Positions 12,746-30,500 of a stretch of DNA of 64,000 nt are shown here, piece after piece. Position 1 is the stretch's first letter. Each line of letters starts with the position of its first letter. Source of the DNA: Chloroflexota bacterium (GTDB lineage Bacteria > Chloroflexota > Anaerolineae > Anaerolineales > UBA4823); NCBI GenBank assembly GCA_032124675.1, contig JAQBDA010000315.1, positions 7,800-71,799 on the forward strand. Reading direction: 5' to 3'. The notes under the pieces are model-generated. The model was given only the letters and a program-made list of their open reading frames with translations. It was not told the DNA's origin and did no database searches. The translations under genes and the position numbers were made by a program.

Positions 12746-14521
12746 TCAGGTTGTTACCGGGGATACCTGCTCCGCCGGTTCCTGTTCCGCATTGCCATTT
12801 CCGTCGGGCATCAAGAAACCGCGCTCTTCCAGATACTTCACAATGATGCGTGCGTTCTCATCGGGAGAAGTCTGCACGGTGTATAGGGTGATCTCCGGGT
12901 TCACCGGCTCTTCATACGGGTCATCCACCCCGGTGAAGCCGGTGATCTGACCGCGGCGGGCACGGGCGTAGAGGCCCTTCACATCACGCTGCTCGCACAC
13001 GTCGATGGGCGTATCCACATACACCTCGATGAAGCGTTCTTCGCCGACCATCTTGCGCGATTCGTTGCGCGTGGAGCGGTAGGGGCTGATGGCGGCGCAG
13101 ATAACTGCCCCGCCGTGGCGGGCGATCTCGCCAGCCACGAAGCCGATACGCAGGATATTGGTATCTCGGTCCTCTGGCGAAAACCCAAGACCTTTCGACA
13201 GGTGTGTGCGGACGACGTCGCCGTCCAGCACGGTAATTTGCTTGCCGCGCTCCAGCAGCAGCGAGGTGAGCACTTCGGCAGTGGTCGATTTTCCCGACCC
13301 GCTCAGACCGGTGAACCAGATGCAGAAGCCCTGTTTGTGGCGCGGCGGGTACATCTGCTGCAGGATGTCCGATGTCTCTCTGCGGGTGAACCACTCGGGC
13401 AGCGAGACGCCTTTGGCGAGGTATTCTTCGCGCACCTGGGTGCCGGAAATCTCGAAGACGCGGGCATCTTCAGGTACCTTGGTATGCTCCTCGTAGCGTT
13501 CGTCATCCGCCAGGTAGACGAGATTTTTGAACTCAAGGGGATGCACGCCTAGCTCTTCCCCATACTGAGACATCATCGCCTGCGCTTCATATGGACCGTA
13601 GAACGGACGACCCTGGCTGTCGCTGCCAGGACCCGCATGGTCGCGCCCGATGATGAAGTAATTGGCGCCATAATTGCGGCGGATGATTGCGTGCCAAAGG
13701 GCTTCTTTTGGTCCCGCCATGCGCATGGCAAGCGGCAGCAGGCTGAGCATGGTTTTGCTTGAATCGTAGTAGTTCTCTACCAGGGCGCGGTAGACACGCA
13801 CCCGGGTGTAATGGTCGACATCGCCGGGCTTGGTCATGCCGACGACCGGGTGGATGAGCAGGCTGCCCTTCACCTCTTCGGCGGCGCGCTTGGTGAGCTC
13901 TTCATGGATGCGGTGCATCGGGTTGCGGGTCTGGAAGGCGACCACATTGGCATTGCCCATGCCATCCAGAGCGCTGCGCACCTGAGCCGGTGTGCGGCGC
14001 AGCTCGATGAAATCGTTATACCTTGGCAGGTCGAGCACTTTCAGCTCTCCGGATACGTAAACCTTGCCCCAACGTCCCATCTCCGAGATCAGTGGGTGGC
14101 GGGAGTCGGTGGTGCCCAGGACCAGGCGCGCCTCCCGCTGCGGATCGTAGTGGTACACCTCTTCGATCTGCATCACGGCGATGGTGTTGTTGCGCGAGTC
14201 GCTGAGCGTGATTTGCTCACCCCAGGTGGGCAGGGCGTTCTCTTCGACCGGCAGCGTCACCGGGATGGGGAACAGGGTGCCGTCGTTGAGGCGCATTTCG
14301 GTCAGCACGCGCTCATAGTCAGCTTTCTTCATAAACCGGTCCAGCGGGGAAAACGCGCCGGTTGCCAGCAGCTCCAGGTCGCACATGGCACGTGCGGAGA
14401 TCTGGACCGAAGGCAGACGCCTGGATCGTTCCTGAAGCTCCTGGCGTTCATCGCCGCTGATCATCAAGTTGACCAATGGTCCTCCATACGGGCTGACCAG
14501 TTTTTTATTCGCTTTTGTCAT
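12746..14521 (-). CDS. sat/cysC: bifunctional sulfate adenylyltransferase / adenylylsulfate kinase (PAPS synthase)
   Basis: 591 aa. ATP-sulfurylase blocks QTRNPMHRIHEEL and GRDHAGPG. C-terminal APS-kinase P-loop FTGLSGSGKST. Confidence 0.9.
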   Translation of the reverse strand: MTKANKKLVSPYGGPLVNLMISGDERQELQERSRRLPSVQISARAMCDLELLATGAFSPLDRFMKKADYERVLTEMRLNDGTLFPIPVTLPVEENALPTWGEQITLSDSRNNTIAVMQIEEVYHYDPQREARLVLGTTDSRHPLISEMGRWGKVYVSGELKVLDLPRYNDFIELRRTPAQVRSALDGMGNANVVAFQTRNPMHRIHEELTKRAAEEVKGSLLIHPVVGMTKPGDVDHYTRVRVYRALVENYYDSSKTMLSLLPLAMRMAGPKEALWHAIIRRNYGANYFIIGRDHAGPGSDSQGRPFYGPYEAQAMMSQYGEELGVHPLEFKNLVYLADDERYEEHTKVPEDARVFEISGTQVREEYLAKGVSLPEWFTRRETSDILQQMYPPRHKQGFCIWFTGLSGSGKSTTAEVLTSLLLERGKQITVLDGDVVRTHLSKGLGFSPEDRDTNILRIGFVAGEIARHGGAVICAAISPYRSTRNESRKMVGEERFIEVYVDTPIDVCEQRDVKGLYARARRGQITGFTGVDDPYEEPVNPEITLYTVQTSPDENARIIVKYLEERGFLMPDGNGNAEQEPAEQVSPVTT

Positions 14522-14573
14522 ATTGCTGATACTCCTGATATTAGATTAGGGTTTTCGAATAATTGCAGCGCAG

Positions 14574-15446
14574 TTAATGATTGCGGCGCAGTTTGTTACG
14601 GGCTTTCATTTCGCTTTCGTATACTTTTTTCTCGCCATCGCCCATGGCGGTCTCGATCACGCGGATGTCGCGTATAAGACGCATCAACCCCCACGGTTCC
14701 ACCGAAGCTGCCTGGTCGCTGCCCCACATCGCCCGGTCCAGGGTGATGTGGCGCTCGATGAAGGCAGCCCCCAGGGTCACGGCGGCGTAGGTGGTCTGCA
14801 GACCGACCTCATGCCCTGAATAGCCAACCGGGCAGTTGAATTCAGCACCCAGGCTGTGGATCATGCGCAGGTTAAGCTCCTCCGGCGGGCAAGGGTAAGT
14901 GCTGGTGCTGTGGGCGATGAGCAGATTCTCGCGTTCGAGCTGACCCACCGCTGCCTTGATCTCATCCATGGTGGACATGCCGGTGGACAGGATTGCCGGT
15001 CTTGCAGTGCGGCGGATCCTCTCCAGCAAAGATGCGTCCGTCAGGCAGGCAGAGGCGATCTTGTAGCAGGGGGGCGAAAACTGCTCGATGAATTCCACCG
15101 AGTCTTCATCCCAGCAGGAGGCAAACCACTGGATGCCTTTCTCCCGGCAGTAGCGATCGATGGCGGCATACCCCTCCTGGCTGAATTCGACCTTGTGACG
15201 GTAATCCAGATAGCTCATCAACCCCCAGGGGGTTTCACGTATCACATTCTGGTATTCTGGGGGTACGGCTTTTATCGGGGTGCGTTTCTGGAATTTGACC
15301 GCATCACAGCCCGCCATCACTGCTACATCGATCAGCCGCCGGGCGATATTCAAATCCCCATTGTGGTTGATGCCGACCTCGGCAATGATAAAGGTCGGGT
15401 TTCCCTCGCCTACCCAGCGCTCTCCAATCTTAATGGCTGCTGCCAT
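14574..15446 (-). CDS. NeuB-family synthase lacking the SAF domain (candidate sugar-phosphate-using NulO-9-P/Kdn-9-P-type synthase)
   Basis: 290 aa. IIAEVGINHNGD, AVKFQKR and GYSGHEVG. Ends shortly after the TIM barrel, with no SAF/antifreeze-like tail. Confidence 0.8.
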   Translation of the reverse strand: MAAAIKIGERWVGEGNPTFIIAEVGINHNGDLNIARRLIDVAVMAGCDAVKFQKRTPIKAVPPEYQNVIRETPWGLMSYLDYRHKVEFSQEGYAAIDRYCREKGIQWFASCWDEDSVEFIEQFSPPCYKIASACLTDASLLERIRRTARPAILSTGMSTMDEIKAAVGQLERENLLIAHSTSTYPCPPEELNLRMIHSLGAEFNCPVGYSGHEVGLQTTYAAVTLGAAFIERHITLDRAMWGSDQAASVEPWGLMRLIRDIRVIETAMGDGEKKVYESEMKARNKLRRNH

Positions 15447-15488
15447 TCGTACTCCTTTTCAGTTTCATCATGCAGGATTGCCTGCCCT

Positions 15489-16664
15489 CTATCTGCCAGC
15501 CTGCATCTCGAGGATCAGCTCGCATATCTCGCGGATAGCCCCATCGCCGCCGCGGTGCTCCAGCACGATATCTGCAACCGCCATCACCTTGGGATAAGCA
15601 TCCGCCGGGGCGACGGCACAGCCCACGCGGGTCATGCAGGGCAGGTCATTGTCATCGTTGCCAACATACACCACAGAAACCGGGTCGATGCTGCGCTCTG
15701 CCAGCCAGGCTTCGAGTGCGGGCCATTTATCTTGAATGTCCTGCAGGCAGGGCAGATCGAGCTTGCCGGCACGGGCGGCGACCACCGGATTGGGTTCGGT
15801 GGAAAGCACCAGCATCGGCAGCCCGCTCTTTTTCAGACGACCGATCCCCCACCCATCGCTGCGGTCGCAGACTACTGCTTCACGCCCATCCTGGAATACG
15901 AGCACCTTGTTATCGGTGAACACGCCGTCGAAATCCAATACCAGAGCGCCGATCTCTTCCGGCAGGGCGCTGGTCTGACGCATGCGCCCCTGCTGGCTGA
16001 CCAGCGCTTCGGCGATGGTGAAATCTACCGGGTTGTCGATCTCCAGGCGGCGTTCGGCGGGCATCTGGTACAGGGCTGTCTTGCCGAAGAAGCGGTGCTG
16101 CGCCTGCAGGAAGCCGGGGACGCGCATTACATAAACCGCGCCGGTCTCCAGGTACTGCGCCTCGCGCTCCTGACGCAGTGGGCGCACAGTTTTGCTGTGG
16201 TTGAGTCCGATGGCATCGCCGGACGGGTCATTCTGCCAGAGAAAGTAATGAAATGGGATCACTGCCAGTCCACTGTCCGCTCCGGCATCCAGCAGCGCCT
16301 GGATGGTTCCGTCGATATCCTCAGCCTGGGTCAGCGGGGATGTGCATTGCAGGAATGCCAACAAGTCGGGCTGGTAGCCCTCGGTCAGGGATAGATACTC
16401 CAGGGCGTGCAGCAGGGCCGACTCGGACGAAGCGCTGTCTCCGCTGATATCTGCCGGGCGCCAGACGACTTCAGCCCCATATTGCTGGGAGATGGCACCG
16501 ATCTCGGTATCATCGGTCGAAACTACCACGCGATCCACCAGGCGAGCCCGCAGTGCCGCCTGGATGCTGTAAGCGACCAGCGGCACCCCTAATAGGGGCA
16601 GAATATTTTTGCGCGGGATGCCCTTAGACCCACCTCGGGCAGGGATAACGAGCACACATTTCAT
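15489..16664 (-). CDS. bifunctional CMP-NulO cytidylyltransferase / HAD-IIIA (KdsC-type) phosphatase
   Basis: N-terminal VIPARGGSKGIPRKNI (NeuA family). C-terminal VLDFDGVFTDNKV ... GNDDNDLPCM (DxD nucleophile and GDxxND of KdsC/YrbI-type phosphatases). ATG 16664 chosen; the track start 16676 is GTG in a GTGA overlap and remains possible. Confidence 0.8.
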   Translation of the reverse strand: MKCVLVIPARGGSKGIPRKNILPLLGVPLVAYSIQAALRARLVDRVVVSTDDTEIGAISQQYGAEVVWRPADISGDSASSESALLHALEYLSLTEGYQPDLLAFLQCTSPLTQAEDIDGTIQALLDAGADSGLAVIPFHYFLWQNDPSGDAIGLNHSKTVRPLRQEREAQYLETGAVYVMRVPGFLQAQHRFFGKTALYQMPAERRLEIDNPVDFTIAEALVSQQGRMRQTSALPEEIGALVLDFDGVFTDNKVLVFQDGREAVVCDRSDGWGIGRLKKSGLPMLVLSTEPNPVVAARAGKLDLPCLQDIQDKWPALEAWLAERSIDPVSVVYVGNDDNDLPCMTRVGCAVAPADAYPKVMAVADIVLEHRGGDGAIREICELILEMQAGR

Positions 16665-16672
16665 CTTATTGC

Positions 16673-17689
16673 TCACAAGTGAACCAATTTACCTTCCTGA
16701 GCGGAGCTCAGTGCTGCCAGCGACAGCCTCAACGCCTGGATGCCATCATCCAGCGAGCACAGCGGCTGCGCTTCTCCCCGGACCACCTGCAGGAAGTGTC
16801 TCATCTGCGATAGGAACAGCTGGTTGCGTTCGAAGCCTGCCGGGGTGGGATGTACCTCCCAGGCCGGTTCTGTTGAATCATCTGCCGCTGTCCGGGAATC
16901 CGGTGCCCGGAAGAGGCGTACCGTGCCATCAGAATTATCCCAGAGCAGGCTGCCGCGGGTCCCGGTAATCTCCAGGCGGTGGGCTGCCGGGCGCTGATTA
17001 TAATCCAGGTGCATGCTGCCCAAGGCACCATCGGCGAACTTAAGGCCGATCTCGGCGGTATCCTCCACATCCAGCGTCAGGTCGCCGCTGCTTCCGGTAA
17101 AAGCCCACACCGCCTCCACCTCTCCAACCAGCCAGCGCAGGTAATCCAGCGGGTGGGATAAGGTCAGCACCACGCCGCCACCCAGATCGCTGCGGGCGCT
17201 GTATCCCTGGCGGTAATCCTCCCAGGGGTGCCACCCGGGCAGGTATTCACCCCAATGGGCGCGCACCGATAGCACCCGCCCAATGGCACTCTCACCCAGC
17301 AGGGCAGCGATTTTTCTCAATCCCGGGTGGAAGCGGAACTGGTAGCCCACCAGCACCTGCCCGCCGCCGCGCTGCACCGCGGCTGCAAGCTCGCTGACCC
17401 GCTCCATGGAATGAGAGACCGGTTTCTCGATCAGCAGGTGGCAGCCGGCTTCGGCGGCAGGGATGGCTGCCTCCAGGTGCATGGCGGTCGGGTTCGAGAC
17501 AATGACTGCATCCGGCTTCCAGGCCAGGGCAGCCTGCGGGTCGGTCTCGACCGGGTAGCCCTCCAGCTCATCCTCAGGCAATGTGGAGCGGTGCGAGCGG
17601 TAGAGCAAGATGTTGCCCTCGCCCAGTGCAGTCAGGTTGCGCAGGTGGCGGCGTCCGATCGATCCCAGGCCGGCGATCAGGAATTTCAT
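16673..17689 (-). CDS. Gfo/Idh/MocA family oxidoreductase
   Basis: 338 aa. N-terminal Rossmann MKFLIAGLGSIGRRH and an EKP motif (LLIEKPV). Confidence 0.85.
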   Translation of the reverse strand: MKFLIAGLGSIGRRHLRNLTALGEGNILLYRSHRSTLPEDELEGYPVETDPQAALAWKPDAVIVSNPTAMHLEAAIPAAEAGCHLLIEKPVSHSMERVSELAAAVQRGGGQVLVGYQFRFHPGLRKIAALLGESAIGRVLSVRAHWGEYLPGWHPWEDYRQGYSARSDLGGGVVLTLSHPLDYLRWLVGEVEAVWAFTGSSGDLTLDVEDTAEIGLKFADGALGSMHLDYNQRPAAHRLEITGTRGSLLWDNSDGTVRLFRAPDSRTAADDSTEPAWEVHPTPAGFERNQLFLSQMRHFLQVVRGEAQPLCSLDDGIQALRLSLAALSSAQEGKLVHL

Positions 17690-17702
17690 CTCGCGCTGAC
17701 CC

Positions 17703-18755
17703 TCACCAACTCACGTCTTTCTCGTAGCCCCAGTCGACCAGGGTCTCCCCGGCTGCCTGTTTGAAGACCTGCCGGTCGTGATCGGTGAAAAGCTCCCGCC
17801 ATGTGCCGCGCTGGCCTTTGTTCAGCGAGCCGGCGATCTCGGCAGCTTTCTCCTGTTGCCAGTCGGCATCTGGATTCTGGCCCAGCTCTGCCTGCAGAGC
17901 GTCTTTCAATCCACCGTCCGAGACGTCCACACCAAGGAATGACCACAATTTGCACATCTCTTCCCAGGCGCGCGCCAGCAAGTCTTCGTAGCGTAGGTGG
18001 ATGTAGCGGTCTTCCAGGAGCTGGCGAGCGGCTCGATCTGTGTCTAGGATGTTATGGCTCCAGCCCTGGGCTGTCTGGCGCAGGCCTTTCTCGGTGAAGA
18101 TCGAGCGCTGACCGGTCAGGTAGGGGGATGGATTATCTGCAAAGCTCTGGCGGATGCGGTTGTCTTCGGGGGACAGGTGCTGCTGGCGGTCGATGAACGC
18201 CTGGAAGCGATGCGAGACAGCCGCATCACGCCCATCGCGCACGATGAAGATCAATTTTGCCTCGGGGAACACCTTGACCAGCTTGTGCACTGCATCGCCG
18301 TCCAGCAGGCTGTTCGGGCTTTTATCACCCACCACACAGCCCGGCCCGGACTTGCCCGCCGAACGGGCATCGCGCTCCATGATGAATTCCGCTGCTGCTC
18401 TCAGCACAAGCGGTGAGAGGTCACGACCCTGGTTCCAGCGGTTGCTGCGCCGGACCAGCCATGCGCCTGTGCTTTCATTGGCGACCAGCGATTCAAGCAG
18501 CGGAGGGCGGGTGAAGAAGTGCCCCTGGTAGTTGCAGTGCACCTGCGGGTGGACACGGATCAGCCGTGTGAGCAGCGTGGTCCCAGAGCGGGCATGACCG
18601 AAGATGAAGAACTTGTCCAGCGGGAAGAAGGCTTTGATCTCCTGCACTTCTTCAGGAGTGATGGGGGGTATCTCTCGGTAGTGCGTGTGTCTGACACTTC
18701 CTTTTCGAAATGCGGAAACTGCAAGTTTCAATCGCTGGATAAATGTATTAGACAT
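17703..18755 (-). CDS. sulfotransferase family protein (third, divergent copy)
   Basis: 350 aa. GHARSGTTLLTRL (5'-PSB) and VRDGRDAAVSH (3'-PB). Confidence 0.8.
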   Translation of the reverse strand: MSNTFIQRLKLAVSAFRKGSVRHTHYREIPPITPEEVQEIKAFFPLDKFFIFGHARSGTTLLTRLIRVHPQVHCNYQGHFFTRPPLLESLVANESTGAWLVRRSNRWNQGRDLSPLVLRAAAEFIMERDARSAGKSGPGCVVGDKSPNSLLDGDAVHKLVKVFPEAKLIFIVRDGRDAAVSHRFQAFIDRQQHLSPEDNRIRQSFADNPSPYLTGQRSIFTEKGLRQTAQGWSHNILDTDRAARQLLEDRYIHLRYEDLLARAWEEMCKLWSFLGVDVSDGGLKDALQAELGQNPDADWQQEKAAEIAGSLNKGQRGTWRELFTDHDRQVFKQAAGETLVDWGYEKDVSW

Positions 18756-18759
18756 TAAT

Positions 18760-18777
18760 CAACCACCAAGGCACCAA
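18760..18777. repeat. left arm of an 18-bp perfect inverted repeat bracketing the GxxExxY cassette (lies within an xCACCAAG x3 octamer array, 18763-18786)
   Basis: caaccaccaaggcaccaa at 18760-18777 is the exact reverse complement of 19194-19211. Confidence 0.9.
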
Positions 18778-18787
18778 GACACCAAGT

Positions 18788-19180
18788 TTATATAACAATT
18801 CGCTTGATACCGTTCTTAATCAATGGTACATTGAAATTGATTAAGTATCCCAGCCGTTTATTCATTAGCTTCAAATAGGTAATGAGCTGGGCGGTGTACA
18901 GGGGGTTTCCCCCTTCAACTGCCTTTAGCTCGCATACAATCAGATCTTCATCAAGTACATCAACCCGAAAACCCTGATCAAACCGTAACCCGTCATAGAG
19001 AATTGGAATAGCGGCCTGTTTCTGGAACGATAGATCGTGTTTATGAAGTTCATGACAAAAACAGATTTCGTAGATGCTTTCGAGGAGTCCCGGTCCAAGA
19101 TTGTGATGCACAGCGAAGGCAGCATCCACAATCTGTTTCCCAATCCGATCTTCTTCTAAAGAAACCTTAGCAAAACTCAT
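18788..19180 (-). CDS. GxxExxY protein (PD-(D/E)xK-like small protein family)
   Basis: 130 aa. Eponymous GLLESIY motif, DVLDEDLIVCELKA core and a C-terminal GYLINFN...GIKRIV tail. Visibly lower GC than its neighbours. Confidence 0.85.
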   Translation of the reverse strand: MSFAKVSLEEDRIGKQIVDAAFAVHHNLGPGLLESIYEICFCHELHKHDLSFQKQAAIPILYDGLRFDQGFRVDVLDEDLIVCELKAVEGGNPLYTAQLITYLKLMNKRLGYLINFNVPLIKNGIKRIVI

Positions 19181-19193
19181 AAATCTCGGTGAT

Positions 19194-19211
19194 TTGGTGC
19201 CTTGGTGGTTG
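19194..19211. repeat. right arm of the 18-bp perfect inverted repeat bracketing the GxxExxY cassette
   Basis: ttggtgccttggtggttg at 19194-19211. Lies 3 nt from the stop codon (19215-19217) of the upstream cluster gene. Confidence 0.9.
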
Positions 19212-19214
19212 GAA

Positions 19215-20642
19215 TCATTCCGTTAAGCTGAGTAACGAGAGGAAAAATTCAGCCGTGCGCTTGCCGGAGCTGCCATCGGTGTAAGTACATTCCCGCTCCA
19301 GGAAGCGGCGCTGAGCGTCCAGGTCGGTTTGAGGGTTTTGCAGATACTCGTTGATCGCATCACATAATTGACTCTCATCCAGCGCCACTTTGCCGGCACC
19401 AGACGTGCGGAAACGGGAATGGGTGGGCCAGACCCCGATCTGCGACATCGGCACCCAGTACTTCCCCGGGTAGCCCTGCTGCGAATCGATGCACACGCTG
19501 ACCGTGGGTCGCCCCTGGAAAGCCGCTTCTACACACATTGTCGAATAAACGGTCAGGAAAATATCCGAATGCGCCATCATCGAAGTGCGTTCGGTCACAT
19601 CCTCGCCGGAATAATGCCCCAACGATCCCAGCGGCACCGGCTCGATGACATGGATATGAGCGTTTTCCTCTGCCAGCTGGCGGATGCGGTCGGCCTCAGC
19701 CACATAATGCCCGCTCATATGGATCGGGTGCAGGCGCACCAGGAGCTGCGCTGGAGCCGACAGCCTGCCGGAGACCACCAGGCTCGCCAGCGCCTCCACA
19801 TTTTGAATGTTGGGCGACCAGCTGACGAAGCTGCTGGCGTAGGACAGCAGAACGCGGTCGGGGTCCAGCCCGTGCTGGCGGAAATAATCCTGCCGCGGCA
19901 GAACCCACTCATCGCGCACGTAGTTATCGTAGGGCGGCATGCCGCCAACATTGACGCCCTCCGGGAGCCAATCGGCGCCGCCCACCAGCTCCTGCTTCTG
20001 GATCTCCGACCAGCAAGTGATCCAGTCCACCTTTGCGCCGGGTAAGCCGTAGCTGCTGGAGCTGTCCCAGCTGATGATGGCGGCCGCGGTCTGTATCCCC
20101 CGGGCAGCCGCCTGGCGCAAGATGAAGCGGTCCTGGCGGAAGCCCGGCGAACCGGCGATCACCAGAGCCGGGCGGTACTTATCGAATAGGTCGGCGTAGA
20201 TATCTGGCGTGAAGCGAGACTGATATGCCTGCAGAGCGCGGCGCAGCGTGTAGGAGCGGCGTATCAGGCGTGCAGCGGCTTCCATCAGAGGGAAGAGCTG
20301 GCGGCGGCGAGCATGGGCTTCACTCTTCACCTGCTGGATATAGCTGTCGACCACCGCCAGGTTGATCCTGCCGGCCGCACCGGCGCGGCGCAAGAAATCC
20401 AGCCACCACTGCACGGTTGGTGAAACCGTTTTGGTGTACTCCTGCACCTGGTCCAGGCGCAGGCCTTCGATAGTCAGCCCGGGTCGTCCAAAGCGAGCGG
20501 CGATCGCCTCTTTGGTATTATCTTCGGTAAATAAAATGACCTCAAATCCGGCATCCAGCAGGTGGGCGACGATATCGCTCTGCAGGAAGTAGAAGGCTGC
20601 CAGCCCGTGGTCAGCGACGATGAATACGCGTTGCGGGGACAT
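19215..20642 (-). CDS. GT-B-like HP-motif transferase (distant Capsule_synth/TagF-like); function uncertain
   Basis: 475 aa. LVRLHPIH followed by SDIFLTVYSTMCVEAAFQGRPTV. N-terminal Rossmann-like VFIVADHG. Architecture parallels 7382-9058 and 33399-35015, but similarity is weak. Confidence 0.45.
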   Translation of the reverse strand: MSPQRVFIVADHGLAAFYFLQSDIVAHLLDAGFEVILFTEDNTKEAIAARFGRPGLTIEGLRLDQVQEYTKTVSPTVQWWLDFLRRAGAAGRINLAVVDSYIQQVKSEAHARRRQLFPLMEAAARLIRRSYTLRRALQAYQSRFTPDIYADLFDKYRPALVIAGSPGFRQDRFILRQAAARGIQTAAAIISWDSSSSYGLPGAKVDWITCWSEIQKQELVGGADWLPEGVNVGGMPPYDNYVRDEWVLPRQDYFRQHGLDPDRVLLSYASSFVSWSPNIQNVEALASLVVSGRLSAPAQLLVRLHPIHMSGHYVAEADRIRQLAEENAHIHVIEPVPLGSLGHYSGEDVTERTSMMAHSDIFLTVYSTMCVEAAFQGRPTVSVCIDSQQGYPGKYWVPMSQIGVWPTHSRFRTSGAGKVALDESQLCDAINEYLQNPQTDLDAQRRFLERECTYTDGSSGKRTAEFFLSLLSLTE

Positions 20643-20717
20643 GTTCAGGACACGGATTTAACAGATATAGCGGATTCTTTAGACAATACGATCAGGCAAC
20701 CCATGAGGGCAAGCATG

Positions 20718-21572
20718 TCAGCCAGCTTTGCGGTACACCATATGGTAGCCGGTGGGGGATTGACTGCGGGCATCTCCCGGAGGGTGGGTTTCCCCAGGGC
20801 CGAGCAGGCTGCGCAGACCACTGGCACTCACTTGCAGCGCCCAAGCGAGGGCACGCCCGGTGTAGTGGCGCACCCCGTGCATTTCCGGCAGCACGGCGTT
20901 CTTCAGGTTGCCGATGCCTTCCCCCAGCAGCGAGACCGGATCATAGTAGCCTTCCAGGTGGGAGACCTCCAGACCGTGCTCCGGAGCGAAACGTACTAGA
21001 GCATAGTGAGTATAGCGGGCGAAGTCGACCGGCACCTGGTGCATCTTGACCAGGAATGGGATGGCGACGATCAATCTGCCGCCGGGCTTCAGCATCTCCA
21101 CCAGCGAAGCCAGCAATGCGTGCGTGTCGTAGACGTGCTCGAGCACGTTCATCAGCAGGATGGCATCCAGGCTTGCCTCACGGAAAGGGTTCGCCTGGGT
21201 CAGGTCGCAGACGATATCCACCTCAGGATAGGGGCAGATATCCAGCGCCAGGTAGTTGCTGTGATCGGTGAACAGATCGGCGAAATCGCCCCGTCCGGCG
21301 CCCACGTCCAGGATGGCTGCCTGGGGATCGAGCGCCCCGACCTGCTCTGCCAGGAAGCGCCAGTTGGCCTGCCGCCAGGGAGTGCCGACGTTTGGACCGC
21401 GCAATAGTTTTTCAGATGGGCGCAGCTCGTCGGGCGGCGCGGTGAACAGCGGGATGCCGTCCTGCAAGAGGATCTCCCGCCCGCAGGTCTGACAGGTCAG
21501 CTCCTGAGCTCCTGCGACCAGCGAGCCGTGACAGCGGTCGCATGTGAGCACTTCCAGCAGGGCGGGTTTCAT
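20718..21572 (-). CDS. class I SAM-dependent methyltransferase with N-terminal Trm112-like zinc ribbon
   Basis: 284 aa. CDRCHGSL...CQTCGREILLQDGIPLF zinc ribbon, then motif I ILDVGAGRGDF. Confidence 0.8.
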   Translation of the reverse strand: MKPALLEVLTCDRCHGSLVAGAQELTCQTCGREILLQDGIPLFTAPPDELRPSEKLLRGPNVGTPWRQANWRFLAEQVGALDPQAAILDVGAGRGDFADLFTDHSNYLALDICPYPEVDIVCDLTQANPFREASLDAILLMNVLEHVYDTHALLASLVEMLKPGGRLIVAIPFLVKMHQVPVDFARYTHYALVRFAPEHGLEVSHLEGYYDPVSLLGEGIGNLKNAVLPEMHGVRHYTGRALAWALQVSASGLRSLLGPGETHPPGDARSQSPTGYHMVYRKAG

Positions 21573-22597
21573 TTCTCCATAGCCTCGCTGTACAGTGCAC
21601 GGAACAGCAGGTTATAGAGGCGCAGGAAGAGCCGGTTGAAGCGCGGGTGCTTCGCCAGCCAGGTCAGGGCGCGCTGTAAGGTGGAGGGCTTCGCGCTTGC
21701 ACGCTCTGGTATGGGCGCAGCCGGGCTCAGGCTTCCGGTGATGCGACCCACTTCTTCCCGCAGCCGCTCATTGACCGTATTGCCCATGTGGAATACATAC
21801 GAATCTGGCGTGGAGAGGTGCAGGTAGCCCAGTTCGTCGATCTTGTAATCGATCGACATGGTCTCCTTGCGCAGCAGCCCTTTGGTGGAGGGCAGCGGCA
21901 CGACCTGACGTGCCACCTCCCGGGGGATCAGGAACTGCATGTGCGAGGCGCCGGTGACCGCCTGGACGCCAGACTCGCGCTCGGTGATGGCGGGCAGTGG
22001 TGTGTTATAGAACTGCGCAGCAAGCTCTTCACTGGCACCAATACCGAAGCAGTACTCGTCGATCGTGTCTATTTTGGGCCAGTAATCGCCGAATTTGTAG
22101 GAGTGGTCTCCCTGCAGCGCCAGGTGGGCTTTACCTTCACCAGCCATGACATCATAGAAGTTGGGCTGGGCACCGATCATGCCTGCCATCGGGAATGCCT
22201 GCAGCACCTGCAGGCTGGCGTCCAGCCAGCCCGGGCGGAAGAGTACATCCGAATCGGTGTAGCAAATTAGCTGGTTGGGCATACTGCTGAATATCCAGTT
22301 CCACGCGCCGGCTTTGCCCATGTTGTGGGCAGACAGGATCAGCCAGTCGATCTTGCGTTGGTCGTACAGTTCTTTCAGTGCAGATACAGCCCGCGGGCAG
22401 CTGCCGTTATCGAAGACCAGCAGGTCGAACGGCTCACCGGTCGCCGCTCGCAGGCTGTCGAGCTGGTATTCGAGGATCTCAAGCGAGTTCTCGAAATACC
22501 CCTCGGTAAAGGGGATGTATACGATCAGCGCTACCCCCAGCCGGTGGGGGGTATAAGCCGGCAGTCCGTCCTTGGCGGGGTTCTTTCCAGTCCTCAT
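21569..22597 (-). CDS. glycosyltransferase family 2
   Basis: 342 aa. LLVFDNGSCPRAV and YTDSDVLFRPGW (DxD). Tandem paralog of 22594-23535. Confidence 0.8.
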   Translation of the reverse strand: MRTGKNPAKDGLPAYTPHRLGVALIVYIPFTEGYFENSLEILEYQLDSLRAATGEPFDLLVFDNGSCPRAVSALKELYDQRKIDWLILSAHNMGKAGAWNWIFSSMPNQLICYTDSDVLFRPGWLDASLQVLQAFPMAGMIGAQPNFYDVMAGEGKAHLALQGDHSYKFGDYWPKIDTIDEYCFGIGASEELAAQFYNTPLPAITERESGVQAVTGASHMQFLIPREVARQVVPLPSTKGLLRKETMSIDYKIDELGYLHLSTPDSYVFHMGNTVNERLREEVGRITGSLSPAAPIPERASAKPSTLQRALTWLAKHPRFNRLFLRLYNLLFRALYSEAMEK

Positions 22598-23535
22598 TGG
22601 TTATAAAGCCTGAATATAGCGTCGTAAAGGCGGAGCAGTGGCTTGCGAATAAAAGGTACATCCGCCAGACGGTTGGCTCGCGATGAAACCGATGCGGCTC
22701 TGGTGACCGTGTCATCCGGCACCTGGTTGCCCATGTGGGTGACCAGCGGTTCGCATGTGGTCAGACGCAAGAATCTGGCCTGGTTGATCTGCTCGTCCAG
22801 CGACCGCACCTGACCCATCGGCCGGTCCATCTTGAATGGAAGGAACTGCCCCAGGTTGGCTTTACGGGCGGTGAACTGAAAGTGGGCCGCGCCGACCAGC
22901 GCCTGGACACCTAGGCGGGTCAAACGCCAATCCGACCGCGACTCGTACCATTCACGCGCCTGCTCCGCTGATGTGCCCAAACTGAGTACATGCTGCAGAT
23001 ACGTTTCCCAGGGAATGTACTGCCCGTTCTCCAGGGAAGCATCCGGCTGGCTGCGCGCCCATTCCAGCGTGGCAGTGTAGAATGCCTCAGGTGTGCGCAT
23101 GGGGCGGGCGGTGACCATGCCTGCCTCAGGGTAGGCCTCCAGTACCGCCAGGCTGTCGGTGAGCCAGCCAGGATAGAAGCGCACGTCGCTGTCAGTGTAG
23201 GCGATATACTCGCCCGGGGCAGCCTGAAAAATAAAATTCCAGGCCCCGCCCTTGCCGACGTTCTTGTCTGACAGCACCAGATACTGGATGCGCTCCTGCC
23301 GCTGCAGTTCGTTCAGGTAGTCTCGGACCTCAGGGCAGCTGGCGTTGTCGAACACCAACAAATCATATGCCTCGCCGGTGTTCTCCCAGATGCTCTCCAG
23401 GCAGACCTTCAGCACGTCCAGACTTTGGGCGTAGTATCCGCTCAGGAAGGGGATATAGGTGACAACAGCTACGGTAACATCGGCAGGCCGGGGCACCGAG
23501 TCGATGGATTTAGCCGGGTTTTGTCCGACGCGCAT
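22594..23535 (-). CDS. glycosyltransferase family 2
   Basis: 313 aa. LLVFDNASCPEV and YTDSDVRFYPGW. ATGA overlap with its paralog. Confidence 0.8.
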   Translation of the reverse strand: MRVGQNPAKSIDSVPRPADVTVAVVTYIPFLSGYYAQSLDVLKVCLESIWENTGEAYDLLVFDNASCPEVRDYLNELQRQERIQYLVLSDKNVGKGGAWNFIFQAAPGEYIAYTDSDVRFYPGWLTDSLAVLEAYPEAGMVTARPMRTPEAFYTATLEWARSQPDASLENGQYIPWETYLQHVLSLGTSAEQAREWYESRSDWRLTRLGVQALVGAAHFQFTARKANLGQFLPFKMDRPMGQVRSLDEQINQARFLRLTTCEPLVTHMGNQVPDDTVTRAASVSSRANRLADVPFIRKPLLRLYDAIFRLYNQ

Positions 23536-23541
23536 ATCGGC

Positions 23542-24447
23542 CTACTGTAGGGATCCGGTCAGCCGGCGGCGTGCCCGGCGAGCAAGGCGAGCCAACGACC
23601 AGCGCATACCGCGGCGCTGCCCATCCGGCGGGGTCAGGCGGGTCTCGATATAGCGCAGGGTGCGCATCCAGGACAACCTTGGAGAGCGCGCTTTACCGTT
23701 GACCAGCTGCTTATCGCTGTCCAATACCATATACAGGTTGGCGGCTCCCCCCGCCAGAGCCTCGTTCTGCTGCGATTCAGGCAGCTCATAATGCGGCTTG
23801 CCACCCGGGAGATGGCTGTAATCGTGGTCCTGGTGGATGGCAATGATGGAGGGCGTGCCATCCACCACGGTATAGCCTTGCTGGCGGGCGTGGTAGATCA
23901 TCCAGTTGTCCCATCCGGCGCGGCCGATGGCGAAATCAGGCATCCTGTTGAACAATGCACGCGGGAAGACGAAGTAATCACTGCCGGCGGGCAGGTGCAG
24001 CCGGCCGCGGCTGTGGACGTCGGCCAGCAAGTGCTGGTCCCAGCCGCTTGAGAATCCCAGTACACGGCGTACGTCAAGGTCCCAGCGCTGACCGATGAGC
24101 AAGAAATGTTCCAATTGCTGTGATACTTGATGTACCGACTCTACGAAGGCCGGAAGCAGCATAACATCGGCGTTGATATAGGTAAACAAATTCGCCTGGC
24201 TGGTCTGGTGTGCCAGGTCGAAGATCGAGCTGACCAGCGGGGTGCCGGCCTCATTGCGCCGCACATCTGTAAGCTGCGGAACCCTATATTCTGCGGCGAT
24301 TGCTGCCATGCCCGGCTCATCACCCACCAGTAGCACGTTTACCTCCTCGCCCAGGTGCAGCCAGGAAAGGATGGCGTTACGCTGGATGGTATCGATATGT
24401 GGATCGGTGAAGGCCTTGGGGGCGGTGAAGATAGTGATCTCAGGCAT
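23542..24447 (-). CDS. putative GT-A-fold nucleotide-sugar transferase (uncharacterised family)
   Basis: 301 aa. N-terminal ITIFTAPKAFTDPHIDTIQRNAILSW pattern recalled from uncharacterised glycosyltransferase-like proteins in polysaccharide loci. YINADVML may be the DxD equivalent. Confidence 0.45.
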   Translation of the reverse strand: MPEITIFTAPKAFTDPHIDTIQRNAILSWLHLGEEVNVLLVGDEPGMAAIAAEYRVPQLTDVRRNEAGTPLVSSIFDLAHQTSQANLFTYINADVMLLPAFVESVHQVSQQLEHFLLIGQRWDLDVRRVLGFSSGWDQHLLADVHSRGRLHLPAGSDYFVFPRALFNRMPDFAIGRAGWDNWMIYHARQQGYTVVDGTPSIIAIHQDHDYSHLPGGKPHYELPESQQNEALAGGAANLYMVLDSDKQLVNGKARSPRLSWMRTLRYIETRLTPPDGQRRGMRWSLARLARRARRRLTGSLQ

Positions 24448-24452
24448 GGGAA

Positions 24453-24505
24453 TAAGGAGTTAGGAGTTAGGAGCTGCGAATCAGGAATTGCGAGTCAGGA
24501 ATTAG
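24453..24505. repeat. heptamer-periodic tandem array (TAAGGAG TTAGGAG TTAGGAG CTGCGAA TCAGGAA TTGCGAG TCAGGAA TTAG)
   Basis: Read directly. It fills the whole 24448-24494 intergenic gap and runs into the 3' end of the upstream CDS. Confidence 0.85.
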
Positions 24506-25394
24506 AAAGGGGGAGCCATGCCTGGCGGGGGAACAGGCGCGTTACAAGGCGGCGGTGGAATAAGCCCCATTTCCGCTTGCGCCGCACGCCTTTCTCCGCC
24601 ACAGGAAACGCGTCTCTCGCTAGGTCGTTTCCCGTGTGGGACGCAACAGGACGTGCCAATGCCGTCAGGTAGAGTGGGATAAGACTAGAGCGCGGCCGAC
24701 CATGGTGCTGTACGCTCAGCAGTTCGAAACCGCTCTTTTCCAGGGTCTGGGCCAGCGTGTGCGGGCTGTAAGATACCAGGTGGGCGACCTCGAAGCAGTC
24801 ATGGGCATACAGGTTAGGCACTTCGACAAGCAGCCAACCGCCGGGAGCCAGCAGCGTCTTTCTCAGGTCAATCAGATATAGGACCGGGTTGGGGATATGC
24901 TCCAGGACATGCGCCATGCTGACCAGGTCAAAGGCCGGCAGCCCGGCAGCTTTGATCTCTTCCAGCGTGGAGAATACGGTCAACCCCTGGTCGCGGGTGT
25001 AGCTGCGGTACGCCTCGCCAGGCTCCAGACCTACGGATTGGCAGCTGAAGCCGAGATTCAAACGCTGCATCAGCAGTCCCGCTGAGCTGCCGATATCCAG
25101 GTGGTTCCGGACTTCCGGGATCCGGTCCTGGATGAAGCTGAAAAGTGCTTCAGCCCGCAGCCGCTGGATTGCCAGGTCTTTCGCTCCCGGTCCGGCGCTG
25201 CCCTGGTATAGCAGGCGGTATTCCTGTTCGTAAAAGGTCTCCAGCTCCTCGTCCGACATGCGCGGTGACTGGTAGACCAGACCACAGGCGGAACAAAGCT
25301 GGTTCGCTACCGTCTGTTCTCGGAAGCTGCGCCGGTCGAATAGACTGCTCCCAATGCTGCCGCACAGCGGGCAGCTCAGGACATCGATGCTCAT
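24495..25394 (-). CDS. class I SAM-dependent methyltransferase with N-terminal Cys4 zinc ribbon
   Basis: 299 aa. CPLCGS...CSACGLVY, then LDIGSSAGLL (motif I) and AHVLEH. Confidence 0.8.
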   Translation of the reverse strand: MSIDVLSCPLCGSIGSSLFDRRSFREQTVANQLCSACGLVYQSPRMSDEELETFYEQEYRLLYQGSAGPGAKDLAIQRLRAEALFSFIQDRIPEVRNHLDIGSSAGLLMQRLNLGFSCQSVGLEPGEAYRSYTRDQGLTVFSTLEEIKAAGLPAFDLVSMAHVLEHIPNPVLYLIDLRKTLLAPGGWLLVEVPNLYAHDCFEVAHLVSYSPHTLAQTLEKSGFELLSVQHHGRPRSSLIPLYLTALARPVASHTGNDLARDAFPVAEKGVRRKRKWGLFHRRLVTRLFPRQAWLPLSNS

Positions 25395-27019: not shown

Positions 27020-27023
27020 ATAC

Positions 27024-27854: not shown

Positions 27855-28952
27855 TTATTGGCGGGCAGCGAGTGCCATGTCGTAGGCACGCAGCAGGTGC
27901 TGGAAGTTCTCTTCCCAGTTCGCGCGTTCTTCGGCAATACGGCGGGCGGAGCGACCCATAGCTGCCAGTTGTGAGCGTTGGCTGACAGCGTTCAGGATCG
28001 CTTCTGACAGAGCGTCTGCGGAGCCGTCGGCGAACAACCATCCATTCACGTCTGGCTGTACCCACTCGCGGTTGCCCGGGATGTCGGATACGATGGCTGG
28101 TCTGCCGCAGGCCATCGCCTCCAGGAGAGAGATGGACGTCCCATCGCTGTGCGAGGCACTGATGTACAGGTCGCTGGAGCGGTAGTAACGCGGCAGGTCC
28201 GCCTGGCTGACCTGCCCTGGGAACAGCACCTGTTCATGCACACCGCCTTGCTGGATGACCTGTCTCAGAACAGACGCCTGCGACCCGTTACCGAGCATCA
28301 CCAGGCGCAGCTCCGGGTACTGGCGGGCAGCCTGCACGAAGGCTCTGGCGATCACATCGACGCCGTAGATCTGCTCCCAGCCGCGGGTGGAAAGCAGGGT
28401 GAAGGTCGCTTTGCAACCCGGTTCGGCGCCGGGCGTGTAGCGTTCCAGATCCGCGCCCCAGGGGAAGGTCACGATGCGCTCATCGGGCATGCCGTATGAT
28501 CGTGCCAGCAGGCGGATAATGTCAGAGTCGCCGACCATCACTGCACTGCGCTGCAGGGTGTAGCGCGTTGCCCAGCGCCAAAATGCGTCCCGGCTGGCAT
28601 CCTGGATCAGGTCGTATCCCCAGGAAGCGCTGACCAGCGGTCGGTAGCCGCTCAAGGCTACCAGGAATGCGGAGCGCTGCAGTGGTCCGGCATGCACCAG
28701 GTCGGGTTGAATTTCTTTGAGCACCCGTCGCAGGTCGAGCAGCAGGCGTGGTCCGTCCCGCAGTGTGGCGGGTCCTCTCCCGCCTGCCCACCTGACCTGT
28801 TCGATCTCGGCTGGCAGCGGGCGGTCTTCCAGAGCGTACCCGCGCTGCTCTAACTGGAGATAAAACACCCTGTGCCCGGTTTTCGCCAGTGCAGAGAGAA
28901 AGCGGTGGTCGTGGGTGGTGTAGTCGCGGGTGAAATATAAAATACGTGTCAA
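27855..28952 (-). CDS. glycosyltransferase family 4 (GT-B, Glycos_transf_1)
   Basis: 365 aa. EX7E-region SHSDGTSISLLEAMACGRPAIVSDIPGNREWV. Only a TTG start (28952-28950) is available; an in-frame stop lies 2 codons upstream. Confidence 0.85.
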   Translation of the reverse strand: MTRILYFTRDYTTHDHRFLSALAKTGHRVFYLQLEQRGYALEDRPLPAEIEQVRWAGGRGPATLRDGPRLLLDLRRVLKEIQPDLVHAGPLQRSAFLVALSGYRPLVSASWGYDLIQDASRDAFWRWATRYTLQRSAVMVGDSDIIRLLARSYGMPDERIVTFPWGADLERYTPGAEPGCKATFTLLSTRGWEQIYGVDVIARAFVQAARQYPELRLVMLGNGSQASVLRQVIQQGGVHEQVLFPGQVSQADLPRYYRSSDLYISASHSDGTSISLLEAMACGRPAIVSDIPGNREWVQPDVNGWLFADGSADALSEAILNAVSQRSQLAAMGRSARRIAEERANWEENFQHLLRAYDMALAARQ

Positions 28953-28982
28953 GTGTCAAGTTGCCCGGTGTCAGGTGTCAGG
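28946..28982. repeat. heptamer array GTGTCAA GTGTCAA GTTGCCC GGTGTCA GGTGTCA GG
   Basis: Read directly. It spans the GT4 TTG start codon and the stop codon of the four-helix-bundle gene. Confidence 0.85.
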
Positions 28983-29298
28983 CGGATTTCTTTTTACGAA
29001 GAGCGTGTTTTAGACCGCCGATCAATGCTTTGGTTTTGCCGGCTTGATCGTATTGTTCCTGGAATATATCTTCATTGATGTAACCAGCATCTACCGCAGT
29101 ATAGAGCAAAGATTGGACCTCTCCTGCCGAGCGCCTGGCAATGCCTAAGTAGCGAGCGAACTCGATTTGCGAATCACAGTCAAGGCCTTCGGCGATATTC
29201 GTCATAACAGAAACGGAAGCTCGTCGGATCTGGTCCCGTAAGCCCAAGTCTTTAGCAAATGCTCCAGTTTGTGTCAAGTCGTATATCTGCTTTGTCAA
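28978..29298 (-). CDS. four helix bundle protein (23S rRNA IVS / Avd-like family); probably disrupted by an in-frame TAA, full length 28978-29352
   Basis: The 106-aa TTG-started ORF has RRASVSVMTNIAEG and ARRSAGEVQSLL blocks typical of the family. Own translation upstream, in the same frame: ATG 29352 MPLIKRFEDILAW-TAA(29313-29311)-EARKL joins the ORF. The family normally has W-Q at that point. Low GC. Confidence 0.8.
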   Translation of the reverse strand: MTKQIYDLTQTGAFAKDLGLRDQIRRASVSVMTNIAEGLDCDSQIEFARYLGIARRSAGEVQSLLYTAVDAGYINEDIFQEQYDQAGKTKALIGGLKHALRKKKSA

Positions 29299-29429
29299 TT
29301 TGCGTGCCTCTTACCAGGCAAGAATATCTTCAAATCGCTTAATTAAAGGCATAGATATTCCTACTTATCCGATCTAAAAGATTTTCATCTGTCAGATAAC
29401 ATGACACTTGGCACTGGAACACCTGGCAC

Positions 29430-30500
29430 TTATACACTCGATAAATCTCCCCATCTGATCTCCTTCCCCGCCGGGATGTCCCTGATCGCCTTTGTCCCAA
29501 TCACATCATTGATCTCGTAAGGCGGGATCGCTCCTGGGGTGGCGGGGCGCAGCACATCGATCACCTCCCGGGTAATCAGCTCGCCGGGTTGAATGTCTCG
29601 GGCGGCGCGCAGGCAGCGGCGCTGTACGATTACGGTCTGCCCCTCGTTGCTGCTGACCCGTTTGTCCGCGGAGCCCAGAGCGCGCTCCATCTCGCGGGTG
29701 CGGTCGACCATATCGCGCCAGGTGGCGGGGGTCATAGAAAATGGATGGTCGGGACCGGTGCGGCTGTTGTCGTCGGTGAAGTGCTTCTCGATCACGCGCG
29801 CTCCCAGCGCCACTGCCCCTAACACTGTGGCGTGACCGGGCGTGTGGTCGGAGAGCCCCAGGATCAGCTCTGGGAACATGGCCCGGTACGTATTGAGCAC
29901 CTGCAGGTGGATGTGGTCGAAGTTCTCCAGGCTGGCAGTGTAGTTGGTATTGCACTGCATCAGCACCAACAGAGGGTTGATCTGCAGGATGGTGTGAACG
30001 GCGCGCTGCACTTCGCCGATATCCGAAGCACCGCTGGCAAGGATGACCGGCTTGCCCTTGCGGGCGATATGCTCCAGCATCTCCAGCCAGGTGATATCCC
30101 CTGAGCCGATCTTGTGCGCTGGCACGTGTGGGTCGAGCATATCGACGGCGTCGAAGTCATAGGGAGATGAAAAGTAATCGATGCCCACATCAGCACATTT
30201 TTCTTTCAAGACCGGCGTCCATTCGAATGGGATTGAGGCATCCGCATACACTTGAAAAACCGATTTTTTCCAGGCAGACTGGTGGGAAAGTTGCCCTCCC
30301 ATGCTTTTGAAGCCATAATCCGAGACGATCTGAGGGGCACGGAAATTTTGAAACTTGGCGGCATCCGCCCCGGCTTCTTTCGCCAGATGGATAAGCAGTA
30401 TGGCGCGTTCGATCTCTCCATCGTGGTTGGCGGAGATATCAGCGATGAAATACGTGGGGTGATTTTCGCCGATAGTGTGGGGGCCGATTTGGATATCCAT
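29430..30500 (-). CDS. NeuB-family nonulosonic acid synthase with SAF domain (PseI-like)
   Basis: 356 aa. FIADISANHDGE, AAKFQNF and GLSDHTPGHATVLGAVALGARVIEKHF (close to the PseI pattern). C-terminal SAF (RCLRAARDIQPGELITREVIDVLRP). Confidence 0.85.
   Translation of the reverse strand: MDIQIGPHTIGENHPTYFIADISANHDGEIERAILLIHLAKEAGADAAKFQNFRAPQIVSDYGFKSMGGQLSHQSAWKKSVFQVYADASIPFEWTPVLKEKCADVGIDYFSSPYDFDAVDMLDPHVPAHKIGSGDITWLEMLEHIARKGKPVILASGASDIGEVQRAVHTILQINPLLVLMQCNTNYTASLENFDHIHLQVLNTYRAMFPELILGLSDHTPGHATVLGAVALGARVIEKHFTDDNSRTGPDHPFSMTPATWRDMVDRTREMERALGSADKRVSSNEGQTVIVQRRCLRAARDIQPGELITREVIDVLRPATPGAIPPYEINDVIGTKAIRDIPAGKEIRWGDLSSV

Follow-up and report, generated by a model that had tools for sequence, protein, structure and literature searches.

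How did a small gene of low GC content come to lie, tightly enclosed by an inverted repeat, between two genes that overlap in many related bacteria, and what kind of element is it? The question is raised by positions 18756-19214 of a 64,000-nucleotide stretch of contig JAQBDA010000315.1 (assembly GCA_032124675.1) from a Chloroflexota bacterium of the Anaerolineales; this whole stretch is called the window below. The gap from the stop codon of a glycosyltransferase (GT) gene (19215, minus strand) to the start codon of a sulfotransferase gene (18755, minus strand) is 459 nucleotides (nt) long, and its sole open reading frame (ORF), 18788..19180 on the minus strand, encodes a 130-aa protein of the GxxExxY family. 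Our proposal is a selfish gene cassette of some 450 bp, promoterless and with ends made of arrays that a protein recognises; we put the probability of this reading at roughly 60%. Two inverted arrays, each of three CACNAAG-N octamers with a short variable clamp, enclose a loop that is taken up exactly by a GxxExxY gene of putative PD-(D/E)XK type. Comparison of orthologous loci places the insertion at a junction of genes that overlap in many relatives, and the design is common to a large family across diverse metagenomes. Four-helix-bundle cassettes, including the intervening sequence (IVS) in the 23S rRNA of Coxiella, have this design too. The parts of the window cassette and the genes on either side of it are given here, the arms being named in the sense of the mRNA.

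19215..20642, minus strand: upstream flanking gene, a 475-aa GT with a weak Glyphos_transf match
19182..19211, minus strand: 5' arm, the clamp CAAC followed by three octamer units, CACCAAG-G at 19201-19207, CACCAAA-T at 19193-19199 and CACCGAG-A at 19185-19191; it begins 3 nt past the GT stop codon and ends 1 nt before the cassette ATG
18788..19180, minus strand: GxxExxY / PDDEXK_3 ORF of 130 aa, which fills the loop exactly
18760..18789, minus strand: 3' arm, three CTTGGTG units plus the clamp GTTG, the units reading CACCAAG on the plus strand at 18764-18770, 18772-18778 and 18780-18786; it shares bases with the cassette stop codon, and 4 nt separate its end from the sulfotransferase ATG
17703..18755, minus strand: downstream flanking gene, a 350-aa sulfotransferase

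The cassette is 452 bases long, is low in GC, lies between two sugar-pathway genes, and is in a part of the window where all genes are on the minus strand. The 18-mers at 18760-18777 and 19194-19211 are exact reverse complements of each other, and the inverted repeat extends to 30 nt with 87% complementarity (18760-18789 / 19182-19211). With up to 3 mismatches the 18-mer occurs at these two sites only in the 64 kb, where the chance expectation is 0.02, and CACCAAGNCACCAAG with up to 2 mismatches has 4 matches in the window, all inside the two arms, when 0.38 are expected. Each arm consists of three CACNAAG-N octamers, which in the window take the form CACCAAG-N. The GC content is 0.38-0.46 along the cassette versus 0.59-0.66 in the flanks (about 0.43 versus about 0.62). 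When the minus-strand RNA was folded by minimum free energy, the arms formed one long-range stem that closes the whole ORF (z = -5.05), and the arm duplex has an energy of -50.1 kcal/mol compared with a mean of -16 for shuffled arms. Neither a promoter-like site above chance nor a terminator-like site was found inside the cassette. No Rfam family reached its gathering score in the window, and the region showed only chance-level matches (E of at least 6). A first-pass annotation, made from the letters of the window, had described a single low-GC GxxExxY gene in the 459-nt gap, enclosed by a perfect 18-nt inverted repeat whose arms sit within octamer arrays, with 4 nt between one arm and the start codon downstream and 3 nt between the other and the stop codon upstream. 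The repeat is exact and these coordinates agree with ours, the gene is borne out by its PF13366 and TIGR04256 matches and by the drop in GC, and the stem that had been supposed there appears in the fold. What matters most, and what the annotation missed, is that the arms consist of a conserved sequence motif common to a very large family.

Membership of the 130-aa protein in the GxxExxY family is clear because it exceeds the curated hidden Markov model cut-offs over its full length. It matches PF13366 PDDEXK_3 with E=6.8e-37 and 126.8 bits (cut-off 22) over profile positions 2-117 of 117, and TIGR04256 GxxExxY with E=3.6e-38 and 130.5 bits (cut-off 35). The motif that gives the family its name reads GLLESIY in this protein, at residues 31-37. 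Residues G31, E34, Y37, D74, E84 and K86 are invariant in 24 homologues, and the catalytic-type residues D74, E84 and K86 are intact in the window protein. A structure model has an alpha-beta core and a pLDDT of 91.5; its structural neighbours are weak and are generic PD-(D/E)XK nucleases, namely, lambda exonuclease, Cas4 SSO0001 and MGME1, all with E>0.02. A sequence search of the PDB gave no match, and PADLOC and PHROG gave no significant defence or phage family match; there is a weak Cas4 match with E=0.037. From the profile matches and the model, the 130-aa protein is a putative PD-(D/E)XK-type nuclease.

The insertion at the junction was examined by collecting 32 loci from metagenome-assembled genomes (MAGs) of Anaerolineales/Chloroflexota with a profile of the GT orthologues; compared loci are labelled here with L-numbers (L005, L006 and so on). 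A cyanobacterial origin of the window was considered and rejected, since HIP1 shows no enrichment and the relatives are these Anaerolineales/Chloroflexota MAGs. The gene order methyltransferase-GT-sulfotransferase-oxidoreductase is kept in these 32 orthologous loci. In 15 of them the sulfotransferase gene begins inside the end of the GT gene, with an overlap of 11-20 nt, an arrangement which suggests translational coupling, and a gap of 16-60 nt separates the two genes in 9 others. Only L005, L006 and L030 have a GxxExxY cassette at the junction. The remainder are L021, which has an ORF-less hairpin, L011, where the junction was not classified, and 3 loci that end before it. The first-pass annotation had inferred that the cassette was inserted between two cluster genes and had pointed to empty sites in orthologous clusters as the comparison to make; most relatives are indeed without the cassette, with empty sites in at least 24 orthologous loci, and in 15 of these the genes overlap. 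In one relative, L118 (77%), both cassette sites of the window are empty, this one and the four-helix-bundle site described below.

The ORFs at this junction are in various states of decay. The GxxExxY ORF of L005 (GT 89% identical) is frameshifted by a short duplication and that of L030 (GT 75% identical) is internally deleted, while in L006 (GT 85% identical) it is intact and its protein is 63% identical to that of the window. In L030 (8402-8569) the GT frame has no stop codon before the cassette, so it continues across the 5' arm and into what is left of the decayed GxxExxY ORF, gaining a C-terminal extension of about 50 aa. All three cassettes have arms of the same kind as the window cassette. 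From the window to L006, all three N positions have changed on both arms together, CACCAAG/CTTGGTG becoming CACGAAG/CTTCGTG, so that the changes are compensatory. The exact GT protein of the window is also present in MAG GCA_032124095.1 and in two Logan assemblies. A 560-nt alignment of the cassette and its edges from four near-identical strains has one single-nucleotide polymorphism only; it turns CAG into TAG at codon 98 of the GxxExxY ORF (Q98 to stop), where the Gln is invariant in the family, and the sister strains carry the nonsense allele. The compact junction in most relatives together with these broken ORFs shows that the cassette is a derived insertion, dispensable and decaying. We therefore regard the window copy as very probably an inserted, dispensable cassette, and the comparison of alleles shows an ORF that is now decaying while the arms persist.

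Three further observations concern this junction and the genes around it. L021 has, at the same GT|sulfotransferase junction (1210-1294), an 85-nt ORF-less hairpin of inverted GACAGGAT units, which are similar to the GACAGAT heptamers in the Coxiella 23S IVS. More than one hairpin family would thus seem to have reached this junction. In L016 a 42-nt gap (8447-8488) contains ACCACCAA/TTTGGTAG/TTTGGTAA, and it looks like the scar of a deleted CACCAAG cassette. The host cluster itself (window 12746-30500) encodes NeuB-type synthases, CMP-sugar synthetases, a sulfotransferase and a fusion of ATP sulfurylase and APS kinase (12746..14521); it is probably a pathway for a sulfated glycan of nonulosonic acid, conserved in many Anaerolineales MAGs.

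Is the cassette peculiar to this junction? Among 8,000 candidates scored, 7,987 were GxxExxY homologues at E<=1e-10, and the genes look multi-copy. A metagenome scan with the GxxExxY profile gave 80 loci with proteins 48-64% identical to that of the window, in hosts with GC from about 0.3 to 0.7; with the window and L006, 82 GxxExxY genes were examined. In 36 of the 69 testable loci the best inverted match between the 90-nt flanks clearly exceeds all shuffles, and with a slightly wider flank the arm alignment score is at least 26 in 54 of the 82 cassettes, about two-thirds. Three or more units are present in the flanks of 68 of the 82 genes. The arms are nearly always arrays, typically three C[A/G]C-N-AAG-N units on the 5' side and their complement on the 3' side, and they adjoin the start and stop codons; most of the 80 loci show an A-array, then the GxxExxY gene, then a B-array. 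Element length is 430-556 nt with a median of 482. The 290 kb of GxxExxY loci contain 164 unit arrays versus 2 in shuffled sequence, and the 385 kb of GT loci contain 7, of which 6 are at the L005, L006 and L030 cassettes and 1 is ORF-less. The cassette GC is below that of the flanks in most of the 69 loci, yet it follows the GC of the host. The neighbouring genes are varied and go beyond glycan genes. Between co-directional neighbours the ORF is in sense orientation in 23 cases and antisense in 2 (one-sided binomial about 1e-5). Family cassettes, the window copy included, thus lie in the sense orientation of the host operon, and it follows that they are transcribed by read-through.

Two expectations of the first-pass annotation can be judged against this family. 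It had held that a repeat without related copies would speak against its reading; the 18-mer proved unique in the window, and many related arrays surround GxxExxY genes elsewhere. It had also entertained rRNA operons as a location, and this failed, because none of the 80 related GxxExxY loci is in an rRNA context when rRNA motifs are looked for. In the literature searched, no description of the cassette or of CACNAAG arrays was found. There are local pile-ups of the element in two loci: L110 (3001-5497) has three GxxExxY copies, one of them broken, within 2.5 kb, and L111 (625-1700) has a run of at least five consecutive CACNAAG hairpins around one GxxExxY gene.

What is conserved in the arms, the pairing or the motif? 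In the ORF-bearing cassettes both leave a mark. CAC and AAG are essentially invariant and unit positions 4 and 8 (N) vary freely, across hosts with GC of 0.3-0.7. This constancy in very different hosts argues for recognition by a trans-acting factor. Within ORF-bearing cassettes the N of unit 1 is complementary between the arms with a frequency of 0.70 versus 0.29 for a control between cassettes, and the outer clamp of 2-10 nt with 0.45-0.88 versus 0.25-0.53. The arms have 119 double-sided changes versus 56.1 +/- 6.6, a number exceeded by 0 of 500 shuffles, and register-shifted controls are far lower.

The ORF-less copies are different. Viral contigs (IMG/VR) were scanned for three perfect units, which gave at least 120 loci (L119-L238). 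Most of these are ORF-less hairpins of the form GCCAC(NAAGNCAC)2NAAG, followed by an AT-rich loop of 13-45 nt and then the complement. There are several per contig and the N letters differ in every copy, as in L142 (539-599, 1232-1287, 3252-3312 and 3996-4059). Pairing at the N positions of 47 ORF-less hairpins is not above the chance level (0.06-0.34 versus 0.28-0.37), whereas the two-base GC/AC clamp of the same hairpins covaries almost perfectly (0.96-1.00 versus 0.45-0.78). Since N is unpaired and CAC/AAG is invariant in these copies, it is the motif and not a perfect helix that is the conserved entity, and the ORF-less copies would point to sequence recognition rather than to a mere stem. 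Long near-perfect stems are typical of the ORF-bearing form only. A GxxExxY gene and ORF-less hairpins are found together in L054, L074, L103 and L111, each of these being a single locus and not a whole genome. Long direct unit arrays of 8-12 copies were seen in L119 and L161.

The window contains a second cassette of this design, built around another gene family and placed in the same cluster, 10 kb from the GxxExxY cassette, between a NeuB-like gene and a gene for a GT of family GT4.

28946..29436, minus strand: second cassette, with a four-helix-bundle (PF05635/TIGR02436) pseudogene, low in GC

Its gene matches TIGR02436 with E=3.2e-25. The ORF runs from the ATG at 29352 to a stop codon ending at 28978 and has an in-frame TAA at 29311-29313, and thus it is a pseudogene; the restored protein has full-length homologues with 70-85% identity. 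The arms are inverted arrays of GTGYCAN / NTGRCAC, and the NeuB-like gene has its stop codon within the 5' arm and the GT4 gene its TTG start within the 3' arm. An 89% relative (L117) has the same in-frame stop and has lost about 150 nt more, and in L118 the empty site is just the stop codon, 13 nt and the TTG. A four-helix-bundle homologue with arms of the GTGYCAN family lies between pstA and pstB in a phosphate-transporter operon. L084 has a four-helix-bundle gene enclosed by GGGATGA/TCATCCC arrays and is the only other one in the loci examined. From these sequences, each ORF family has its own arm units within a common design. One widespread four-helix-bundle homologue was considered as an insertion at multiple sites and was rejected, because an exact-protein look-up showed one context sampled many times.

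Other repeats and low-GC regions of the window are recorded here for completeness. A direct, not inverted, array (24448-24500) lies in the 47-nt gap before the gene at 23542..24447; it has two 14-nt AATTCCTGAYTCGC units and then AACTCCT repeats. L118 has only 6 nt in this gap, L117 has a longer array (6150-6245), and the GT|sulfotransferase gap of L018 has a 13/14 match to the 14-mer AATTCCTGAYTCGC. The AATTCCTGAYTCGC/AACTCCT array is another intercistronic repeat family of these genomes. Further low-GC pockets (0.44-0.46) at 44501-44920 and 55441-56140 are without short-unit arrays or a convincing small gene.

How might such a cassette work? We suggest that the octamer arrays are sequence-specific recognition sites, most likely for the encoded nuclease, with (CACNAAGN)3 as the candidate recognition array; the chances that a protein recognises the arms appear to us about even. 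The arrays would mark the ends of the element for copying or recombination into new intercistronic sites, in the way that REP sequences flank a RAYT gene, and the ORF-less hairpins would be non-autonomous derivatives. In the operon transcript the arms would inevitably pair as a stem of some 30 bp with an energy of about -50 kcal/mol, and this stem would hide the cassette's ribosome-binding region together with its start codon. By analogy with IVS stems it would be a likely substrate of RNase III, in which case the flanking cistrons would be uncoupled at the RNA level. We put RNase III cleavage at the stem in vivo, which is argued from that analogy, at somewhat short of even odds. In its widest form the proposal is that GxxExxY proteins, which rank among the largest families of small proteins still uncharacterised, are nucleases of a new class of hairpin mobile elements with inverted CACNAAG-N ends, that four-helix-bundle cassettes are a sister class with units of their own, that both colonise any strongly transcribed RNA-coding DNA, that ORF-bearing 23S IVSs are the minority resident in rRNA, and that ORF-less hairpins are REPIN-like derivatives. 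This wider proposal is speculative and we think it rather doubtful as a whole.

Several results weigh against the view of the feature as a selfish cassette with protein-recognised ends. No solved or characterised relative of the 130-aa protein was found in the PDB, fold, defence and phage searches. The exact protein is on record at one locus only and the window holds a single copy of the cassette, so recent transposition is not shown. No target-site duplication is present at the repeat boundaries in 23 of 35 cassettes, and the other 12 have 1-3 nt, which is the chance level. No transposase is recognised, PDDEXK_3 being the only Pfam match. Arm type follows the protein phylogeny in 58 of 68 cases, and this concordance is uninformative because simple co-descent also explains it. 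The mismatches between the arms on the sense strand are 54 G.U and 50 A.C, without an excess of wobble pairs, and this equality means that selection at the RNA level on the sense strand is not demonstrated; as far as the sequences go, selection in DNA, or upkeep by conversion between the arms, would fit the data as well as sense RNA does. Finally, the 120 hairpin-rich contigs have no GxxExxY gene in the flanks examined, and for this reason the tie between hairpins and nuclease is inferential.

The same mismatch counts bear on the explanation closest to that of the first-pass annotation, a pure RNA-level analogue of an IVS in which selection acts on the stem as a site of RNase III processing or protection that keeps the cistrons apart, and both ORF and octamers are incidental. 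A stem of about 30 bp and -50 kcal/mol that closes the whole cassette, arms that covary in ORF-bearing cassettes and arms that outlast the decay of the ORF speak for it. Stems of equal size in Coxiella and Leptospira are cut by RNase III (PMC4990558), and an ORF-less hairpin stands at the very same junction in L021. However, a stem needs complementarity alone, and CAC/AAG is conserved in hosts with GC of 0.3-0.7; G.U and A.C mismatches are equally frequent; the unpaired N positions would make the ORF-less hairpins poor substrates for RNase III; and at least 24 relatives do without any structure at the junction. On balance we consider the RNA-level explanation unlikely.

A further explanation is an intergenic repeat beneficial to the host, like REP/BIME or the cyanobacterial STRR, that tunes operon mRNA or translation and in whose loop a GxxExxY gene has lodged. 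The hairpins are numerous, their N letters differ in each copy while CAC/AAG is perfect, suggesting purifying selection per site, and they have no terminator tails; in several cassettes, and in ORF-less copies also, the outer clamp gives a T-run before and an A-run after the hairpin, and housekeeping operons are among the hosts, as at the pstA|pstB junction. Yet in the lineage of the window the arrays are confined to the surroundings of the ORF, CACNAAG arrays go closely with GxxExxY genes and other units with four-helix-bundle genes, and a parasite would better account for the patchy presence, low GC and ORF decay, which makes a repeat kept for the host improbable. Terminal inverted repeats, short ORF-less derivatives and presence/absence polymorphism would also be expected of a classical cut-and-paste or replicative transposon or a miniature inverted-repeat transposable element. 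Such an origin is very unlikely, since target-site duplications are lacking at the 35 cassettes inspected, there is no transposase family match beside PDDEXK_3, identical copies were not found elsewhere and the 18-mer is unique in the window; in addition, strict sense orientation and intercistronic placement are unexpected from random transposition alone. Least credible of all, and to be given hardly any weight, is an ordinary accessory gene for a nuclease of the defence or toxin type with the repeat as a chance or local feature. PD-(D/E)XK folds are common in defence systems and there is the weak Cas4 match (E=0.037), but chance is far from enough to explain the repeat, which is also found around dozens of homologues, PADLOC and PHROG gave no significant match, and this single ORF between biosynthetic genes is without partner genes.

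If the selfish-cassette reading is right, it bears on genes that are common and poorly explained. To our knowledge, GxxExxY (PF13366) and four-helix-bundle (PF05635) genes have been annotated by the thousand without a function, and the curious ORF-bearing IVSs of rRNA have lacked an explanation since the early 1990s. Both families are carried in promoterless cassettes, closed off by inverted arrays of short units and placed cleanly between the cistrons of ordinary operons. The model is testable in that it names a putative nuclease with a defined candidate binding site, CAC-N-AAG, and it implies RNase III cleavage of the operon mRNA at the stem and a common origin of IVSs and these cassettes. 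The cassettes split overlapping, presumably coupled, genes in biosynthetic and housekeeping operons, and the low-GC islands that they make can pass for genes gained by horizontal transfer. As a repeat family, the CACNAAG hairpins were found neither in Rfam nor in the literature searched. Should the new class of mobile elements prove real, the classical 23S IVSs would be only a small part of a larger population of hairpin cassettes with an ORF in the loop.

Several known systems share parts of this anatomy. The STRR (TAACTGA) of cyanobacteria and Beggiatoaceae are short tandem heptamer repeats (PMC4679880). Like the arms described here they are intergenic arrays of 7-8-nt units near start codons, common to several phyla, but they are mainly direct repeats, are not reported to enclose a gene and have another unit sequence (PMC4679880). 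The free-standing homing endonuclease genes of phage operons are similar in that a small nuclease gene lies precisely between conserved genes in sense orientation, in that presence and absence vary at a fixed site among relatives, as at the GT|sulfotransferase junction, and in frequent decay; they lack the conserved inverted arrays at the ends. The Correia/NEMIS elements of Neisseria are small inverted-repeat elements in transcription units whose hairpins are cut by RNase III with a change in the stability of the flanking mRNA. They resemble the cassette as small inverted-repeat elements inserted within a transcription unit, and differ from it in having no ORF, in having TA duplications and in being confined to one genus.

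REP/REPIN elements and their RAYT gene, reportedly termed a 'REPtron' and said to go back to Nunvar 2010, Bertels and Rainey 2011 and Ton-Hoang 2012, come nearer. In both cases a short conserved repeat stands in inverted copies on either side of a nuclease gene, there are many intergenic ORF-less hairpin doublets of the same repeat, and there are no target duplications. On the other hand, RAYT is an HUH Y1 transposase whereas the window protein matches PDDEXK_3/GxxExxY only, REP is one palindrome with GTAG whereas the cassette arms are arrays of three 8-nt units, and a further difference is that GxxExxY genes look multi-copy.

The ORF-bearing 23S rRNA IVS of Coxiella and Leptospira, with its S23p/four-helix-bundle ORF, is the closest described analogue by its anatomy. 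The Coxiella burnetii IVS is 428-444 nt long with a 28-bp terminal stem, three tandem GACAGAT heptamers precede its four-helix-bundle ORF and differ in number from strain to strain, the ORF is evolving reductively, and the stem is cut by RNase III, as are Leptospira IVS stems of similar size (PMC4990558). The first-pass annotation had named both GxxExxY and four-helix-bundle proteins as ORF families of 23S IVSs; the latter is documented, and the presence of GxxExxY in IVSs was not confirmed from any source. The differences lie in location and content. The window cassette is between protein-coding cistrons and not in helix 25/45 of 23S rRNA, with no rRNA found in the window by Rfam or in the 80 related loci, its ORF encodes a PD-(D/E)XK GxxExxY protein, and its unit is the octamer CACNAAG-N. 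The likeness is in the plan. Complementary termini enclose the element (arms of 30 nt, 18 of them perfect); an element of about 430-480 nt has a terminal stem of about 28-30 bp around a single ORF of about 120-130 aa; tandem 7-8-nt repeats stand just before the ORF; distribution is sporadic and the ORF reduces while the RNA structure persists; and the second cassette of the window encodes the IVS protein family PF05635 itself. The idea of a selfish, IVS-like cassette in an operon was right in kind, for what we find is a dispensable, decaying passenger that belongs to a large family and has the anatomy of an ORF-bearing 23S IVS.

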